From the IMG/VR virus record IMGVR_UViG_3300049049_000237, positions 112,003 to 176,002 of that record: 64,000 bases of DNA; one strand, given 5' to 3'. The DNA comes from a virus. Position 1 is the stretch's first letter, and each line of letters opens with the position of its first letter. The translations under genes and the position numbers were made by a program. A model generated the notes under the pieces. It was not told the origin of the DNA and did not search any database. It saw only the letters and a list, made by a program, of their open reading frames with translations. Of this stretch, positions 1 through 62,637 are shown in pieces.

Positions 1-519
1 GTAGTTCTCGCAGAAGTCCTTGATGAAGTTCCCGATCGGCAGGCAGATGCGCTGCGCGATCTCCGTGGCACCGAGCTGGAGGATGCCACCGCGACGCAGG
101 ATGATGAAGTTCTCATCCCGGCCCATGATGAACATGTCGCCGGGCTGGATGTCAGGTCGGTTCCCGCGGAACGAGACGTCCGTCTGGCTGCCACCCTCGG
201 GCGTGCTTCGCAGCGGCTCCCCAGTGTCCGACTGCACGACGGTGGGGGTCAGCAGGAAGCCGAGGATGAAGGGCGGCGAGGTGTCGTTCGCTCGCCCCAC
301 CATGCACACGGCGCCGACTTCTGGCAGCAGCGAGAAGCCCTCGCCGTTGTAGTTGTGGACGTACGGCGACAGGATCTGGAGGTCCTCGTACCGCTTCGAG
401 GTGGTCTCGGTGATGACCGAGACCGTGTAGTTCCTCTTGTTGACGTCGACCACCGTCGCCTGCTCGCAGACGAAGGGGAAGAACGTCGAAGTCGACGGGC
501 CGTTGCCGGTGTATCCCAT
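1..519 (-). CDS. Putative baseplate spike / gpV-Gp5 OB-fold-like protein, 3'-partial (runs off the window)
   Basis: Not in the ORF track; translated by hand as MGYTGNGPSTSTFFPFVCEQATVVDV...LLPEVGAVCMVG...PPFILGF, which fits the gpV 'P.vG..v.v...P.ilG' pattern. The ATG at 519 overlaps the RNAP stop (TGATG). Confidence 0.55.
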   Translation of the reverse strand, partial: MGYTGNGPSTSTFFPFVCEQATVVDVNKRNYTVSVITETTSKRYEDLQILSPYVHNYNGEGFSLLPEVGAVCMVGRANDTSPPFILGFLLTPTVVQSDTGEPLRSTPEGGSQTDVSFRGNRPDIQPGDMFIMGRDENFIILRRGGILQLGATEIAQRICLPIGNFIKDFCENY

Positions 520-3500
520 CAGTAACCTGCCGGACCCTGACCGTGCCCGAACTCTCGCGCGTACGCCAGACCCGGGATCGGGTGCAGGCCGTGGATGTCG
601 GACTTCTCGCCGTGGGTCGCGGCGGTGATGAGATGCTGCTGGAGGTTGTTCGTCATGAGCCGCGCGATCCAGTCCTTCTGACGACGCGCGGTCGTGGTCT
701 GCGTCGGCTCCAGGAACGGCTTCACCTGGATCGGACGCTTGCCCTTGAGCGTCGTCCGGTTGACCTCGTCGACGACCGACTTCTGAAGGTGGTCACCGCG
801 AAGGATCGACGGGTGGTCTCCGGGGTCGACGACCTGCACGGTGCTCGTCGCGTTGCGCACCGTGAGCTCGACGTGACGACGAAGGACGTCCTCCTTCTCG
901 TAGATCTTGCCGATGCGATCGACCATGAAGTCCTGCGCCGCTTCGATGCCGCGGGTCTTCAGGAGATCGCGCAGGTTCGGATCACCCTCGGTGAGCTGCT
1001 CGCCGCGCTGGAACGTGTAGCCCGGCTTGATGTGCGACTTCGGCGCGTGGCGCGCGTAGAGGGGGACGCGGCTCGTGTCGTAGTAGATCTTGAAGCCGCC
1101 CTGCGGCTGCGGCTCGATGCGCGTGACCTTGCCCTGCTTCGGGGCGACGATCGCGTCCTTCGCAGGCGACTTCTGCGCGACGCCGTACAGACCCTTCACG
1201 GTGTCGAACTCGTCGACCGCGCCGCGCTGGATCGGGACGATGCCCTGGTTGTGCGTCTGCTTGAGCATGAGCTGCGACGCACGTTCGCCGATCGCTTGCG
1301 CAGCGATGATGCCGACGTTGTCGCCGATCGCGTAGTTCGTGCCGCTCGGGTGCTTGCCCATGCAGGTCGAGCAGATGCCGTGGGGCATCCGGCACTTGAG
1401 CGGGGAGCGCACGAAGACGTGCGAGACGCCACCCTTGGAGAGGCTGCTCTGGATCTCGGGCGTGATGATCGTGCCGGCGGGCAGCGACTTGCCCGCGATC
1501 GTCACCGGCGACGCGAGGTACCGATCCACGAGGTCGCGATCGGCCGAGCTCAGGCTGATGCCCTGCTGCGTACCGCAGTCGTGTGACGTGATCGGCGAGT
1601 CGATGTTCGCCTGGATGAGCTCCTTCGTGAGCGTGCCGGGCTCGCGGACTGCGTCGGTCTTCTGGATGACGCCGCGACGCGCACCCGAGGACTGGAGGAA
1701 GTACCCACCGATGTCGATGCCCTCGGAGAACGAACGCGTGATCGGGATCTTCGACGGACGACCGAGATGATCCTCGACCAGCATCGGAGCGATCACGAGC
1801 CCCTGGAACTGCTCGCGCTTCGCCTTGATGCCCGACTGCGCCATGTCCGAGACGTTCGTCGGGTTCTCCTTGTGCTTCTCGCTGTAGATCTTGTGGAGGT
1901 TGCGCGTCGCATCCATCCAGATCTTCGTGCGTGCCTCGTCCGTATCCGCCTTGGCCGCGAGCCGCTTCGCCTCGGCGACGATCTTCTGCCGCTCTGCACG
2001 GAAGGGTTCGAGGTCCGAGAGACGCACGGTGTGTCCGCTCTCGAAGGCCATCTTGAACCCGAGCTGCGTGATGCCCTGCGTCAGAGCACCGAAGTGACCC
2101 GGCTCGGTCCGCGCCGTGTCGCGCAGCATCTCGCTGACGAACTTCTTCGTCACCGGCGTCTGGAGGTCGGTGAGGATCTTGTCCTTGTACTTCGCAGGCA
2201 CCATCGACGCGATGCGTGCGCGGCCGAGCGTCGTGCGCTTGCCCGCGATCGTCACGACGTCGTCGAGGCTCACCTTGTTGCCGAGGAACGCCTTCTCGGC
2301 ATCTTCCTTCGTCGAGAAGGTGTGGGACGTCTGCTTCTTCGGCAGCGACATGCGGTAGAGAGCGAGCAGCGCCTCGTTCGTCGGGGTGAAGAGGACCTCG
2401 CCCGTGCTCGCCGACAGCGAGCGATTCGACGGCAGGAGCTTCTTCGCTTCCTCGACCGCGCCGTGGCTGAGCGGGAGCATGAGCGCGACCGCGTCGCCGT
2501 CGATGTCGCCGCCGATCGGCGGGAGCACGAGAGGGCTCACCTTGATCGCGCGGCTGTCGGTGAGCTTCACCTTCTGCCCGATGATGCCGTACTGGTGGAG
2601 CACCGGATCGCGCTTCATCAGCACGGGGCGGTGCTCGATCTCCTGCTGAAGCATCGCCTCGGCGGTCGGCGTGCGCTGCGAGATCTCCTTCTGGGCGTCG
2701 AACGGGTTCATGCCCATCTGCGTCAGCCGGTGCGCGACCAGCGGGCGGAAGAGCTCGAACGCGATCTTCTTCGGCACGCCGATCTCGTCGGCCCCGAGCC
2801 CGGGGTCGGCGACGATCGTCGCTCGCGCCGTGTAGTCCTGCTTCTTGCCGATGATGCGGTCCTGAAAGAACCCGTCCTTCGGCATGTCGCCCGCGATCGT
2901 GTGGAGCACACCGGGCAGGTGGCGACCCTTGACCTCCTTGCCCTGGAAGTCGATGTCGAGCGCCTTCTTCCCCTTCGGCGTTGTGCCGATGAGGTTCTGC
3001 ATCTCCTGGAAGAGGTCACCCTGCGTCTTGAGCAGTCGCTTGTGCGGGATGCCTTCCTTCTTCGACTGCTCCAGCGAGGTGTTCACCATGCCCAGCCGTC
3101 GGTAGAGCTGGTTCATGGGATCGATGCGGTCCTGCCCGTCCGCGCTCTCCTGGAAGGGGCGGTAGATCGGCGGGAGCACCGGCAGGTACTTCAGCGTGTA
3201 CGCCTCCGCCGGGGTCTTGCCCTGCTCCTTGAGCGTCGAGAGCGCCTTGTACGTGAACGTCGCCCGGTTCAGGTCCGCACCCTTGAGCTTCGGGTCGTCC
3301 ATTTGGGTGCGGAGCTTCTTGAGCTCCTTGTCGATGTCGATCTTGGCGAGTGCCTCGCGGATCGCCTGCCCGCCCGACTTGCCGTTGATCGCGAGCTCGC
3401 CCGAGATGACCTTGTGCAGTAGCTGCGCTTCGTTCGCACGCTTCGCGTCCCCACCCTTGATGTTGAGCAGGTTCACGACCGCCTTCGCGAACACGGGGTT

Positions 3501-6500
3501 CGGCATCGGCTCGGCGAGCTCGATGTAGCCCCAGTTCTGCTTGTCGGTGCCGAAGATGCGGGTGTCGAAGATGCCGCCGGACTCCGGCTTCATGTTCTTC
3601 GCCATCACCGTCGCCGCGGGGTTCGTCACCTTCGCGTGCTTGCCGGCCTTCGCGAGCACCTCAGCATCCGTCATCGGCATGATCTGGATGCCGTTGCCGC
3701 GCTTCTGCGTGTTGAGCCCCGCAGAGTGCAGCATTGCGTTGAACTTCTCGTAGACGAACGGCACCTGCGGCGGCGGCAGCGGCTTGCCGTTCGCCAGCGC
3801 ATCCCAGAGAGCTTCCGCCTGCGGCTTGTCCGACTTCAGCGTCTGCATCTCGCCGAGGTTCTGACGAAGCCCCGCCGCGAGCGCGCCGTACACACCGAGC
3901 GATCCGAGACTCTGCGCGCCCGTCTCGCCACCGCCTCGCGGAACAAGGTTGGTGTCGTACTGGATCATCGGCGCGTAGTCCTTCAGGTAGAACCCGCCGT
4001 GACGCACGTGCGTCTTCTTGTCGATCTGGTGTTCGAGCTGGAAGACGTAGTGGGGCCCGACCGTGACGTCGCCGATCGTGCGACCCGTCTTCGGATCGAT
4101 GAGCGTCTCCGTCTCCTTCAGGCCGTGCTTCTTGAGCTCGTTCTGGACCTTCTTTAGGTAGTCGGTCTGTCCGTCGAAGTTCTTGACGAAGTACGGCTTG
4201 CCCGTCTTCTCGGCGATCTTGCCCGCGGCCGTCTCCAGAATCTGGCCGGGGTTCATGCGGCCGGGCACCGAGACCGGGTTGATGAGCATCTCGACGTGCT
4301 CCTTCTTCCCGCCCTTCTCGGCAAACGGCATCTCGTGGTCCGGCACGACCTGCGTGACGATGCCCTTCGCGCTGTGACGCGTGGAGACCTTCGAGCCCAC
4401 GACGAGCGGCTCGGACGTCTTCACGTGCACGACGATGTTCTTGCCCGCACGAACGACGCGCACGATCTCACCCGGGTACGGGTGGTCCCACGTCATCGCG
4501 GCGTTGCTGTACCCGATGCGCCCCTTCTTCGTGAGCTGCGCGAGCATCTTCGCGTCGAGCGAGTCGGGGTCCTTCTGCTCGCGGAGCGCGAGCACGAGAG
4601 GGTCTCCCGGCTGCACCTTGGTGCCCGGCTTGATGAGGCCATCGTCACCGATGTTCGCGAGCTGCGTCTGCGCGTACGCGTTGAGCTTGTCGTCGAGGAA
4701 GCGCTTCTTGCTGATGACGTGGTCGGACGTCACGTAGAAGGACGGCTTGAGCAAGTGCTCCGTGCCGAGCTTCTTCGCCGCGCTCTCCGAGAGGACGATG
4801 CCGTCCTCGTGGTTGGCGCCGTTGGCGAGGTAGGCGACGCGCACGTTCGTCCCGAGCGCGAGCGCACCGTCCTTCGAGAACGAGTGGTCCGCGAGGACCT
4901 GTCCTGCACGCACCGTGTCCCCGACCTTCACGGTCGGGGTGCTGTGGAGCATCGCCTTCTTGTCGTTCAGCGGGTAGTGGTCGTAGAGGTGGACCGACCG
5001 CTCCTTGCCGTCCTTGCCGACGACGATGATCTCGTCGTTCTTGATGGACTTGATGTGCCCGTCGATCGGCGACTTGTGCGAGAGGAACGTCTGCCCGATG
5101 CGCTGCTCGAAAGAGATGCCCGGGGCCGCCTCGACCTGCACACGCGGGGGTTCGCGGCCGACCACGCTGAGTGCCTGAGCCATGTGACGCGCCGACATCG
5201 TCGTGCGTCCCGCCGCGTCGTTCTGCATGAACGGGACGAGGTTCGTCTCGGTGGAGAAGACCTGCCCCGGCGTGATGAGGGTGTACTCCGCCTGCGAGAA
5301 CGGGAGCTCTTCGATCTCGCCGTTCTTGTTCGAGACGCGCACCTGGGGACCGAGCGGCTTGGGCTTGCCGCCCTCCCATCGGATCTGGTCGGGCAGGACG
5401 ACAATGGCTCGCGCAGCTTCTGCCGGCGTGAGCTCTTCGACCTTCCCCTTCTTGATGTTGTACAGACGCGCGTACGGCTTGCGGTCCTTGACCGTGATGC
5501 CGCTCGTCAGGTGGAGTGAGGTGCCTGCTCCGGAGCCCTCGGGCGTGAACACCGGATCGAGGAAGCCGAGGTGCGACGGGTCGACGGACGTGTTCGACAG
5601 CGTCACCTGATGCTCGGACTTCAGACCACCGGGGCCCATGATGGTCGTGTGGCTGCGATCGGCGAGCATCGTGACGAGGTTCGTCTGCTTCGAGTTGCTC
5701 GCGAGCGCCGTGGCGAAGACGTGGTTGATCGGCTTCTGGATGAGGTCGGGCATCACGATGTCGCGAAGCACCGACGCATTCCCTGCGCGCAGCGACTCCA
5801 TCGTCGACTTCTTGCCCAGGGACTTCAGCACGCGGCCGTGGATCTCGTTCTTCGAGGCCTTGAGGCGCTCGGCGAAGTGATCGGTCGGCGTCCAGAGCTC
5901 CTTGAACTCCAGCGAGTCGATCGGGTCCGGATGCGCTCGCTGCGCGCTCACGTCGATAAGCTTCGCGCTCGCCTTCATCAGGGCGGGACCTGAGACGGAC
6001 TCGAAGGCGTGACCCAGCGTGGTCTTCGTGACCACCGGGTCCATCTTCGTCTCCGACAGGTACTTGTTGATGGCCTGCGGCAGGTCGAGGGTGCTCGGGA
6101 CCTGCTGAGCATCCTTCATCGCCGTGTAGAAGGACTTGAGGTCGTGCTCGTAGCGCGACTTCTTCTGATTCGAGGCGAAGTTCTTCTCGCCCCACGAGGC
6201 CTTCATCTCGTCGTCGCTGACGCCCGCGGCCTTCAGCACCGAGTAGAGCGGGATCTTCCGCGCGCCGCTCTTGATGAACATGTAGCCCGTGCCGGGCTCC
6301 ATCTGGAGATCGAAGCTCTTGCCCTTCGCGAGCTGGAACTGCGCCTCGTACTCGCCCTTCTTCTCGGTCGCCTTGACGTAGGCACCGGGACGGAGACGCC
6401 ACTGGTTCGTGACGGTCTTCTCCTGCCCGCCGATGATGAAGCTGTGGTGGCGTGTGAGCTTGGGGATCTCCGCCACGCGGGTCCTCTTGCTCACGAGCAC

Positions 6501-6746
6501 CTTGCCGTCGCGATCGACCACGTCGACGTGACCGAAGACTGGAGCCGTGTACGAGCGCCCGTTCAGACGCGCGTCCATCTGGCCCTTGATGTCCTCGGTT
6601 CCGAGGTCTTCACCGCCGACCTCCAGGTTTCGCACCCGCACCTCGATGCCGGTCTTCGGATCGACGATGGGGAAGGTGCCGTTGATCTCCGCCAGGAGGC
6701 GGGTCTTCAGCTCCTCGAACTGCTTGTTCGGGTCGGTGGTGAGCAC
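519..6746 (-). CDS. rpoBC: Multisubunit-type DNA-directed RNA polymerase, fused beta-beta' (2075 aa)
   Basis: Beta motifs GPGG, GSKVSTRHSAKG, NPVSVPGRMNPGQILE, LEHQIDKKTHVR and TLKSD. Beta' motifs GIFDTRIFG, LPVLPPIYRP, GKKQDYTAR, KRDPVLH, catalytic DIDGD, DCGT...RSPLKC...CSTC and trigger-loop AAQAIGE. Confidence 0.96.
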   Translation of the reverse strand: MLTTDPNKQFEELKTRLLAEINGTFPIVDPKTGIEVRVRNLEVGGEDLGTEDIKGQMDARLNGRSYTAPVFGHVDVVDRDGKVLVSKRTRVAEIPKLTRHHSFIIGGQEKTVTNQWRLRPGAYVKATEKKGEYEAQFQLAKGKSFDLQMEPGTGYMFIKSGARKIPLYSVLKAAGVSDDEMKASWGEKNFASNQKKSRYEHDLKSFYTAMKDAQQVPSTLDLPQAINKYLSETKMDPVVTKTTLGHAFESVSGPALMKASAKLIDVSAQRAHPDPIDSLEFKELWTPTDHFAERLKASKNEIHGRVLKSLGKKSTMESLRAGNASVLRDIVMPDLIQKPINHVFATALASNSKQTNLVTMLADRSHTTIMGPGGLKSEHQVTLSNTSVDPSHLGFLDPVFTPEGSGAGTSLHLTSGITVKDRKPYARLYNIKKGKVEELTPAEAARAIVVLPDQIRWEGGKPKPLGPQVRVSNKNGEIEELPFSQAEYTLITPGQVFSTETNLVPFMQNDAAGRTTMSARHMAQALSVVGREPPRVQVEAAPGISFEQRIGQTFLSHKSPIDGHIKSIKNDEIIVVGKDGKERSVHLYDHYPLNDKKAMLHSTPTVKVGDTVRAGQVLADHSFSKDGALALGTNVRVAYLANGANHEDGIVLSESAAKKLGTEHLLKPSFYVTSDHVISKKRFLDDKLNAYAQTQLANIGDDGLIKPGTKVQPGDPLVLALREQKDPDSLDAKMLAQLTKKGRIGYSNAAMTWDHPYPGEIVRVVRAGKNIVVHVKTSEPLVVGSKVSTRHSAKGIVTQVVPDHEMPFAEKGGKKEHVEMLINPVSVPGRMNPGQILETAAGKIAEKTGKPYFVKNFDGQTDYLKKVQNELKKHGLKETETLIDPKTGRTIGDVTVGPHYVFQLEHQIDKKTHVRHGGFYLKDYAPMIQYDTNLVPRGGGETGAQSLGSLGVYGALAAGLRQNLGEMQTLKSDKPQAEALWDALANGKPLPPPQVPFVYEKFNAMLHSAGLNTQKRGNGIQIMPMTDAEVLAKAGKHAKVTNPAATVMAKNMKPESGGIFDTRIFGTDKQNWGYIELAEPMPNPVFAKAVVNLLNIKGGDAKRANEAQLLHKVISGELAINGKSGGQAIREALAKIDIDKELKKLRTQMDDPKLKGADLNRATFTYKALSTLKEQGKTPAEAYTLKYLPVLPPIYRPFQESADGQDRIDPMNQLYRRLGMVNTSLEQSKKEGIPHKRLLKTQGDLFQEMQNLIGTTPKGKKALDIDFQGKEVKGRHLPGVLHTIAGDMPKDGFFQDRIIGKKQDYTARATIVADPGLGADEIGVPKKIAFELFRPLVAHRLTQMGMNPFDAQKEISQRTPTAEAMLQQEIEHRPVLMKRDPVLHQYGIIGQKVKLTDSRAIKVSPLVLPPIGGDIDGDAVALMLPLSHGAVEEAKKLLPSNRSLSASTGEVLFTPTNEALLALYRMSLPKKQTSHTFSTKEDAEKAFLGNKVSLDDVVTIAGKRTTLGRARIASMVPAKYKDKILTDLQTPVTKKFVSEMLRDTARTEPGHFGALTQGITQLGFKMAFESGHTVRLSDLEPFRAERQKIVAEAKRLAAKADTDEARTKIWMDATRNLHKIYSEKHKENPTNVSDMAQSGIKAKREQFQGLVIAPMLVEDHLGRPSKIPITRSFSEGIDIGGYFLQSSGARRGVIQKTDAVREPGTLTKELIQANIDSPITSHDCGTQQGISLSSADRDLVDRYLASPVTIAGKSLPAGTIITPEIQSSLSKGGVSHVFVRSPLKCRMPHGICSTCMGKHPSGTNYAIGDNVGIIAAQAIGERASQLMLKQTHNQGIVPIQRGAVDEFDTVKGLYGVAQKSPAKDAIVAPKQGKVTRIEPQPQGGFKIYYDTSRVPLYARHAPKSHIKPGYTFQRGEQLTEGDPNLRDLLKTRGIEAAQDFMVDRIGKIYEKEDVLRRHVELTVRNATSTVQVVDPGDHPSILRGDHLQKSVVDEVNRTTLKGKRPIQVKPFLEPTQTTTARRQKDWIARLMTNNLQQHLITAATHGEKSDIHGLHPIPGLAYAREFGHGQGPAGY

Positions 6747-56817: not shown

Positions 56818-57612
56818 TCACGGCAGGTACGGCTTCGCCTTCTTGAAGATGGCCGAGCGAAGCTGGTAGACGCGGCTCTTGTTCATGCCGGTGCGCTTCG
56901 CGATTTCAGCCATCGAGGCGGGAGAGCCGTTCGAGGGGAAGAGCTGATCGAAGACCTTCTTCTCCTCGGACGTGAGCAGCGACGGCATCAGCGAGATGAT
57001 GCTGCGCATCTGGCTCGGGGCGTGCCCCAGGCTCCCGTCATCGGCCGCCTCGGGGTTCGGGTTGCCGCCGATGTAGTGCTCAGTCCGGACCTCGACCATC
57101 AGGCGCTGGATGTCGTTCGGCTTCACGTCCGGAAGCCGCTGCGAGATCTCGTGGGCTGAGGGCTCACGCCCGAGCTCGTCGTGGAGCTCGTTCTTCGCGT
57201 TCTGGACGCGCTGGTAGAGGTCGACGCGGTTCTTCGGGATGCGGGCGAAGTTGCGGTTCGCGGCCACGAAGTCGGTGACGCGCTGAAGCCCCGTGGTCAC
57301 CCACGTCTGGAGCTTGGCGCCGCCGCTGTCCGGGTTGAAGCTCTCGATGCTCTTCTTCGCTGCGAGTCGGAGCTGGGTCTCCATCGCGCCGTACGGGATC
57401 GACCCGCCGACGCCTCTGGTGCGCGTGCGCGCCTGCTTCTGGATGACGTGCTCGAACGCATCGAGCAGCGGTACGAGGTCGCGCTCCTGGCGACCTCCCG
57501 CATGCCACTTGCGCCAGAGCTCCTCGTGCGGGTCGGCAGACTTCGGCTTCGAGCCGAGCTCCTGACGAGCCGTTCTGTTGAACTCGGTGATCTTCTTGTT
57601 GGTGCTCATCAC
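56818..57612 (-). CDS. Sigma70-family RNA polymerase sigma factor (group 3, FliA/SigB-like architecture)
   Basis: Region 2 SIESFNPDSGGAKLQTWV, RIP, region 3 LGREPSAHEI, region 4 HTH MAEIAKRTGMNKSRVYQL. Confidence 0.85.
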   Translation of the reverse strand: MMSTNKKITEFNRTARQELGSKPKSADPHEELWRKWHAGGRQERDLVPLLDAFEHVIQKQARTRTRGVGGSIPYGAMETQLRLAAKKSIESFNPDSGGAKLQTWVTTGLQRVTDFVAANRNFARIPKNRVDLYQRVQNAKNELHDELGREPSAHEISQRLPDVKPNDIQRLMVEVRTEHYIGGNPNPEAADDGSLGHAPSQMRSIISLMPSLLTSEEKKVFDQLFPSNGSPASMAEIAKRTGMNKSRVYQLRSAIFKKAKPYLP

Positions 57613-62222: not shown

Positions 62223-62230
62223 CCTATCAG
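62223..62230 (+). promoter_or_regulatory. CCTATCAG motif upstream of the small-ORF/tRNA unit
   Basis: Exact 8-mer 4 nt before ATG 62235. Confidence 0.5.
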
Positions 62231-62234
62231 CAAC

Positions 62235-62378
62235 ATGAAGGAGACGGAGGGCCCCGACGCCCTCCGTGACGAAGACATGGGGAACATCGGGGGCGCTCTT
62301 CGCATCTGCATCGCGGTCGACGCGATGCTCATCTTCATCTTCACCGTCACGTTCATCGTCATCAGGCACTGCGCCTGA
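62235..62378 (+). CDS. Small single-TM protein (47 aa)
   Basis: MKETEG...AMLIFIFTVTFIVI. Confidence 0.55.
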   Translation: MKETEGPDALRDEDMGNIGGALRICIAVDAMLIFIFTVTFIVIRHCA

Positions 62379-62388
62379 AGAGGCCACA

Positions 62389-62427
62389 ATGCACTTCACA
62401 GCGAACACCAACAACACACAGATGTAG
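62389..62427 (+). CDS. Putative Asn-rich leader peptide MHFTANTNNTQM
   Basis: AAGAGG SD; AAC-ACC-AAC-AAC codons; followed by alternative hairpins, a terminator and tRNA-Asn. Confidence 0.5.
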   Translation: MHFTANTNNTQM

Positions 62428-62450
62428 TCTATCTGTGAACATGATGTTCT

Positions 62451-62481
62451 AGGACAGGGCGCCCGCCCTGTTCTTTTGCCT
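62451..62481 (+). terminator. Intrinsic terminator / attenuator upstream of the tRNA
   Basis: AGGACAGGGC-GCCC-GCCCTGTTCT then TTTGCCT. Confidence 0.75.
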
Positions 62482-62518
62482 CTTGACCTCCGACGCGAGC
62501 TGGGGCACACCGATCCGC

Positions 62519-62591
62519 GGTGCGGTAGCTCAGTGGTCAGAGCGTCTGACTGTTAGCCAGAGGGTCCCTGGTTCAAGTCCAGGCCGCATCG
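62519..62591 (+). tRNA. tRNA-Asn(GTT)
   Basis: Acceptor GGTGCGG/CCGCATC, D arm GCTC/GAGC, loop CT-GTT-AG, T arm CCTGG-TTCAAGT-CCAGG, discriminator G; no encoded CCA. Confidence 0.9.
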
Positions 62592-62592
62592 T

Positions 62593-62637
62593 GCCCCGGG
62601 CCGGTTCAGCCCCCAGACCGGTTCGGGGCTTCTTTTA
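62593..62637 (+). terminator. Terminator after the tRNA
   Basis: GCCCCGGGCCGGT...ACCGGTTCGGGGC then TTCTTTT. Confidence 0.75.

Follow-up and report, generated by a model that had tools for sequence, protein, structure and literature searches.

In the attenuators of the E. coli trp, his and thr operons (trpL, hisL and thrL), a short open reading frame (ORF) with control codons at the start of the transcript precedes alternative 1:2, 2:3 and 3:4 helices, and the target is a biosynthetic operon. A ribosome near a terminator can also suppress termination directly; the limit of this pyrBI-type blocking is 27 nt (PMC4824070). Moreover, arrest peptides of the RAPP/RGPP type are found in ApdA, ApdP, CruR and Streptomyces uORFs. 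RGPP is reported to form the most robust arrest core, resistant to EF-P, and to be the 4-mer that many proteomes exclude most strongly; ribosomes stall with the third codon of the motif in the P site and the fourth in the A site, and an N-terminal helper region is needed (PMC12992588). Phage tRNAs have been described as replacements for cleaved host tRNAs, in work that covers the tRNA sequence rather than its regulation and does not mention Asn (PMC10264068). Our literature search, with incomplete coverage, returned no account of leader-peptide attenuation of phage tRNA genes and no Asn-codon attenuator.

Here we describe a locus within a 64,000-nucleotide stretch of viral DNA (the window; positions 112,003 to 176,002 of IMG/VR record IMGVR_UViG_3300049049_000237) in which an Asn-codon leader ORF and an intrinsic terminator precede a tRNA-Asn gene. 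We propose that a young, trp-like attenuator supplements a tRNA gene, itself under a predicted promoter, with read-through from a phage promoter; we judge the chances of this proposal being right or wrong to be equal. What is new here is a selected RGPP mini-ORF that stands at a fixed distance from the terminator in relatives, and with which the window's leader aligns.

Results

Organization of the leader and tRNA locus

The virus record comprises 191,681 bases (a 191.7-kb genome) with 64% GC. It encodes a fused beta/beta-prime RNA polymerase of 2075 aa (window positions 519-6746, minus strand) and carries a sigma-70-like gene (56818-57612), and its stable RNAs are one tmRNA and one tRNA, the tRNA-Asn(GTT). 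The tmRNA gene lies outside the window (G000:C1 66991-67385, minus strand), where it immediately follows a terminator-like hairpin and a -35-like hexamer. The leader and tRNA lie in a plus-strand insert of 450 bases that is flanked by two minus-strand genes, of 1183 and 417 codons; relatives have either nothing in the corresponding gap or a variable cargo unit encoded on the opposite strand. The parts of the insert are listed in Table 1.

Table 1 Features of the leader and tRNA locus (window coordinates).
Feature	Position	Strand	Remarks
Promoter motif CCTATCAG	62223..62230	+	Heads the plus-strand cargo unit; presumed source of the transcript to be attenuated
Small hydrophobic ORF, first cargo gene	62235..62378	+	47 aa from ATG 62235; alternative starts GTG 62202 and ATG 62277
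Shine-Dalgarno-like AAGAGG	62378..62383	+	Its AAG occupies the position of the RGPP mini-ORF's ATG in relatives
Stretch colinear with relatives' RGPP mini-ORF	62378..62413	+	Start and motif lost in that frame
12-codon leader ORF	62389..62427	+	ATG 62389; TAG 62425-62427
About 34 bases found in no relative	62414..62447	+	From alignment; provides the 1:2 hairpin and segment 2
1:2 hairpin	62417..62437	+	8 bp, 62417-62424 / 62430-62437, -8.7 kcal/mol; leader stop in loop
Predicted 2:3 antiterminator	62427..62460	+	-10.1 kcal/mol; several G-U pairs and bulges; includes palindrome 62437-62449
Intrinsic terminator (3:4)	62452..62478	+	Stem 62452-62460 / 62465-62473, about -15 kcal/mol; U-tract to 62478
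Predicted sigma-70-type tRNA promoter	62483..62511	+	-35 TTGACC, 17 nt, -10 CACACC; start expected ~62518-62519
tRNA-Asn(GTT)	62519..62591	+	Rfam 63 bits; the genome's only tRNA
Terminator behind the tRNA	62593..62636	+	-27.7 kcal/mol; abuts the stop of the convergent 417-aa gene

The motif CCTATCAG occurs in 13 distinct intergenic copies in the genome, oriented into downstream genes, and is retained in relatives at the cargo slot; it is very probably a phage promoter element. The small hydrophobic ORF behind it has a homologous ORF in L008, L009 and L013 and no match in Pfam or PHROG, and its stop (TGA) overlaps the leader's Shine-Dalgarno (SD) sequence at 62378. In the leader ORF itself, codons 6, 8 and 9 are AAC, codons 4 and 10 are the rare ACA and codon 11 is CAG; the three AAC within codons 6-9 match the GTT anticodon of the downstream tRNA. 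A preliminary description, made from the DNA letters and their reading frames, had overlooked the hydrophobic ORF and the phage promoter. The parts that it did name (the AAGAGG SD, the 12-codon ORF, the three AAC, the 1:2, 2:3 and 3:4 pairings and the tRNA-Asn(GTT)) were all recovered in place by sequence, folding and Rfam. An Rfam scan of the locus passed the tRNA alone and gave no match for the leader, and the matches of a search of cultured-phage sequences were limited to the tRNA. The leader's SD (62378-62384) can pair over 6-7 bases with 62478-62484, just behind the terminator; this pairing would be present only in read-through RNA and is possibly incidental.

The tRNA-Asn(GTT) has a G1-C72 pair, G38 and an A31-C39 mismatch, and its CCA is not encoded. 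G38, in place of the usual A38, is shared by the tRNA-Asn of the window (62519-62591) and those of L009, L013 and L014, a clade that also has the anticodon-stem mismatch and G1-C72, and it recurs in eight further viral tRNA-Asn (L281-L288). Such a loop may mean that t6A37 is absent or may confer nuclease resistance.

Computed switching of the leader RNA

We placed a ribosome on the leader codon by codon and calculated the folding energy to be gained when the nascent RNA locks up the terminator's 5' arm; this masking test was calibrated on the E. coli trp, his and thr leaders (trpL, hisL and thrL; NC_000913.3, loci L110-L112). The antiterminator gain is -1.7 to -2.8 kcal/mol through Thr7, reaches -7.2 kcal/mol at Asn8 and Asn9, and then declines to -5.4 at Thr10, -3.5 at Gln11 and 0 at both Met12 and the stop. 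The same script applied to E. coli gave -9.2 kcal/mol for trpL at Trp10/Trp11, falling to 0 at the stop, and values as large as -13.7 for thrL and -6 for hisL. The switch window was robust at Asn9 in 9/9 footprint and length settings and at Asn8 in 6/9, and Asn6 falls outside it. As computed, the 1:2, 2:3 and 3:4 helices are mutually exclusive, and the antiterminator is favoured with the ribosome on the control codons, not at the stop. Thus, the trp/his attenuator geometry that the preliminary description had recognized holds in a quantitative test, including its expectation that a stall on the Asn codons favours 2:3. The 2:3 helix, which that description had called weak and to which the inner palindrome contributes -2.9 of the -10.1 kcal/mol, is weaker than its counterparts in E. 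coli trp and thr.

The region folds more stably than chance (z = -2.5). When the spacer alone was shuffled, 1.4% of the sequences reached a three-state switch (3.6% without the 1:2 condition), and whole-leader shuffles did so in 0.07% (p 0.0007); these frequencies are optimistic because the thresholds were set at the observed values. None of the ~19 other terminators picked in the genome is preceded by an SD-led mini-ORF lying wholly upstream of it.

A translated leader could also gate the terminator in response to something other than Asn, namely the rare ACA codon 10, the Gln codon 11 or the general speed of translation. Thr10 and Gln11 do lie in the switch window (-3.5 to -7.2), ACA accounts for 53 of the ~3460 Thr codons in the genome (1.5%), the equally rare CCA (1.5% of Pro codons in the window's genome) occurs in tandem in the leaders of 4/4 relatives described below, and the slot in L014 carries a tRNA-Gln(CTG). 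However, the peak coincides with the tandem AAC and the sole downstream gene is a tRNA-Asn, and we regard a signal other than Asn as improbable.

A predicted promoter separates the terminator from the tRNA

Directly behind the terminator, a TTGAC(C/G)-17-CA signature is present in 5/5 close genomes (the window's genome, L008, L009, L012 and L013), whose spacers have diverged, and it is kept even where the RNA that follows is not a tRNA. A TTGAC-17-CA pattern also heads the tRNA operons of phages L282 and L284, with -10 boxes that are 1-2 bases from that of the window; in those phages it lies upstream of a leader ORF and terminator, whereas in the window it lies downstream of both. A sigma-70 consensus scan of the locus picked no promoter, and it misses the element at 62483-62511 because the -10 is atypical; CACACC is a poor match to the E. 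coli consensus. On the strength of the conserved signature, the tRNA-Asn probably has its own promoter, with a predicted start at or just before the first tRNA base.

These findings narrow what the leader could do. The preliminary description had raised TTGACC at 62483 as a possible separate tRNA promoter, a suspicion that the conservation in 5/5 genomes upholds; its reading is weakened by the predicted tRNA start, which likely lies downstream of the terminator. Of its central idea that the leader controls the tRNA-Asn, the computed switch geometry stands; given the promoter signature conserved behind the terminator, the leader element would not be the sole control of the tRNA and would at most add conditional read-through. 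Attenuation would therefore be dispensable.

The terminator is older than both the leader and the tRNA, because relatives with neither (L015, L017, L020, L032, L033, L106 and L109) still close the cargo unit with a hairpin that has the same TTTGC tail. The predicted 3:4 terminator is thus a general one, which closes the cargo at this slot throughout the phage family.

Relatives carry an RGPP mini-ORF before the terminator

Relatives were collected by a homolog search with the 417-aa neighbour gene (65-86% identity). A tRNA-Asn(GTT) occupies the same slot in L009, L013 and L014, an aberrant tRNA that of L012 and another hairpin RNA that of L008. Despite their tRNA-Asn(GTT), L009, L013 and L014 lack the Asn leader, and in L014 the tRNA is present without any leader; this lack of conservation speaks against the reading of the preliminary description. 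None of the relatives read at the slot (among them L008, L009, L012, L013 and L014) has an Asn leader, and no second genome with one was found. In a near-identical strain (JGI 3300071358; L164) the intergenic gap is 4 nt longer than in the window. No further ortholog emerged when viral contigs were scanned with DNA patterns of the tRNA, of the junction between terminator and promoter, and of the RGPP ORF; the matches looked unrelated.

The RNAs at the slot and the neighbouring cargo are varied. In L008 (4252-4345, minus strand), the promoter signature is followed by a hairpin RNA of ~58 nt with a C-rich loop and no Rfam match, and then by a terminator. The RNA of L012 (4310-4383, minus strand) has the same tRNA body type with an enlarged, aberrant anticodon loop (Rfam 48 bits), and its anticodon is not assignable. 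In L106 (4252-4290, minus strand), the slot holds a decayed tRNA immediately after the terminator, of which just the 3' half, tRNA-Gln-like in sequence, is left, and in L022 (4220-4700, minus strand) tRNA-like RNAs with large anticodon-arm insertions, all below the Rfam tRNA cut-off, end the cargo unit. Anticodon CUA tRNAs, which are probable amber suppressors, end NADAR-containing cargo units at L014:1354-1426, L015:1347-1419 and L017:766-840; a PTH2 gene in L016 adjoins cargo of this CUA-tRNA/NADAR type.

A mini-ORF whose ATG overlaps the cargo stop is found in L008, L009, L012 and L013, with RGPP encoded after 7-8 residues. The motif is present in 4/4 mini-ORFs with varying Arg and Gly codons, while its Pro-Pro is CCA-CCA in all of them. 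Over 9 codons, L008 and L012 differ by five synonymous changes, one of them CGA versus AGA, and by no amino-acid change, which reflects selection on a peptide. RGPP and RAPP each occur 0 times among the 242 called proteins of the window's phage. From the P-site Pro to the terminator tail there are 35-38 bases in all four relatives (the window equivalent is 71). In the computed folds, a ribosome edge at +12 to +15 from the P-site Pro still leaves the terminator hairpin intact, and one at +18 to +21 abolishes it. The RGPP mini-ORF of the relatives is, from these comparisons of sequence, a selected, translated and stop-coupled element, and in this phage clade coupling of a ribosome to the terminator at this slot very probably exists already, by way of a presumed arrest. 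Either a stall or an escape from it may trigger read-through there, both being compatible with the sequence. At the head of the NADAR-containing cargo units named above no RGPP leader was seen.

Window positions 62378-62413 align with the RGPP ORF of L009 without gaps at 19/34 identical bases (shuffle p 0.0003), mostly owing to an ACCAAC core, and more weakly with those of L008 and L012 (p 0.016 and 0.034). The old ATG is now the AAG within the SD, and a new ATG opens another frame, in which the ancestral Pro-Pro-Thr codons read Thr-Asn and are flanked by two further AAC. The RGPP core is absent from the translated frame of the window; the frame colinear with it has no start and a different 4-mer. 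The 1:2 hairpin and segment 2 are made of the ~34 extra bases, which also move the terminator beyond direct reach of the ribosome. Between the leader stop and the stem there are 24 nt, close to the 27-nt limit for direct repression (PMC4824070), so that an RNA switch would be needed instead. The alignment reflects either re-wiring under selection or decay with lucky by-products.

If decay is the answer, the leader is a relic of an RGPP mini-ORF, the terminator just ends the cargo unit, the tRNA's own promoter is its sole source of transcription, and the Asn codons and hairpins arose incidentally. Such a history would suit a sequence that is colinear with an RGPP ORF whose start and motif are lost, next to a promoter signature conserved in 5/5 genomes; the same terminator stands in relatives without a leader, L014 does without any leader before its tRNA, and AAC-rich, low-GC spacers are typical of this phage. 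Moreover, AAC is 2.4-fold enriched before its start codons, Asn-rich starts occur and AAGAGG-like purine runs after stop codons are common, which makes the features of the leader less surprising. Decay would nonetheless have to produce, all at once and without selection, an SD, a start, two extra AAC, a stop placed within a hairpin loop and a switch in the right phase, although the selection effect of scanning many windows offsets this argument from co-occurrence. We consider a relic to be a serious possibility, if a somewhat doubtful one; were it true, the window would hold an ordinary terminator-promoter junction, and the feature of interest would be the conserved RGPP mini-ORF of the relatives.

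The ORF might also be the truncated 5' end of a deleted cargo gene, with the inverted repeats at 62417-62437 and 62437-62449 acting as DNA operator sites. It occupies the place where cargo gene 2 starts in relatives and shares 4/11 residues in frame with the N-terminus of the L009 gene; however, its profile score is -0.1 against 25-36 for members of the family, nearly invariant Asp, His and Leu are missing, and the palindrome has one exact copy in the genome. We rejected an origin from cargo gene 2 on the profile scores, and a repeated operator is not supported either, the excess of near-matches to the palindrome being probably a matter of codon bias; the combined reading is very improbable. 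The L009 gene itself (4471-4932, minus strand) belongs to a widespread family of ~145 aa with 319 homologs, a nearly invariant S-H-x-D-H and no Pfam match.

A possible mechanism for conditional read-through

In the attenuator that we propose, a small transcription unit from the CCTATCAG promoter would end at the intrinsic terminator, with the tRNA behind it served by a presumably active promoter of its own. Across the clade, a mini-ORF would couple the ribosome to this terminator, in four relatives through a stop-coupled peptide of the RGPP arrest type (assuming that it arrests), and in the window's genome this ORF would have turned into a switch of the trp kind. With the ribosome slowed at Asn8/Asn9, segment 1 would be hidden, the 2:3 helix would sequester the terminator's 5' arm, and the upstream transcript would continue into the tRNA-Asn. 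With the ribosome at the stop, or with no ribosome, the terminator would form; here the folding is computed, and translation, coupling and Asn sensing are presumed. The effect would be extra phage tRNA-Asn when AAC is decoded slowly, for instance upon cleavage of host tRNA-Asn, in addition to the basal level that the tRNA's own promoter would supply. Such a boost would fit a loss of host tRNA-Asn and not amino-acid starvation, because starvation presumably gains little from more tRNA, and a role of the phage tRNA-Asn as a replacement for lost host tRNA-Asn would fit the shared G38 loop variant.

Several observations bear on this proposal. The SD, the start, the stop in the 1:2 loop and two AAC beyond the inherited one are specific to the window's genome, and the 34 extra bases are those that build the switch. 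Against it, one AAC and the richness in A and C come free from the ancestral Pro-Pro-Thr codons in the other frame, and the leader is not the first ORF, since an ORF of 33-58 codons lies between the CCTATCAG motif and the leader. In addition, the phage encodes its own fused beta/beta-prime polymerase, which may or may not couple to ribosomes. More tentatively, and with some doubt on our part, an RGPP arrest leader would have been converted into an Asn-codon attenuator by a new start, a change of frame and a 34-base insertion, thereby boosting a phage tRNA on demand, and the RGPP mini-ORFs of the relatives would be a further terminator-gating use of arrest peptides, before stable RNAs.

Discussion

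If true, a switch with a single codon and a single tRNA would offer the simplest test of whether phages make replacement tRNAs when host tRNAs are destroyed. The locus would also provide a natural comparison pair, with one and the same terminator under the control of an RGPP stall in four relatives and of a trp-like switch in the window.

With E. coli trpL, hisL and thrL, the window's leader has in common the short ORF with control codons, the alternative 1:2, 2:3 and 3:4 pairings and a switch window on the control codons; as in trp, the stop lies in the 1:2 loop. Unlike the E. coli attenuators, its target is a phage tRNA gene rather than a biosynthetic operon, and that target has its own predicted promoter; the leader follows another ORF rather than standing at the transcript start, and is not conserved in orthologues. 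Because it departs from the trp type in three defining features (leader as first ORF, dependence on read-through and conservation), we do not file the locus as a trp-type attenuator.

The mini-ORFs of the relatives share the RGPP core with the RAPP/RGPP arrest peptides, whereas the window has lost the motif. They differ from these peptides in having just 7-8 residues before the motif, without a signal or membrane segment, and in that a terminator and a stable RNA, rather than a protein gene, lie next to them. As in pyrBI-type blocking, ribosome position would decide termination in the relatives, as judged from the loss of the hairpin at +18 to +21. Compared with the phage tRNAs treated as replacements for cleaved host tRNAs (PMC10264068), the window has a single tRNA with a non-standard anticodon loop (G38), which it shares with L009, L013 and L014.

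Units of a predicted leader and terminator precede tRNA blocks in other phages as well. In L287 (9759-9910, minus strand), a promoter, a mini-ORF with five Leu codons and a terminator stand before two tRNA-Leu genes, and in L282 (2433-2660) and L284 (2904-3140), both on the minus strand, a conserved 48-codon leader with all 20 amino acids and a terminator stand before a large tRNA array.
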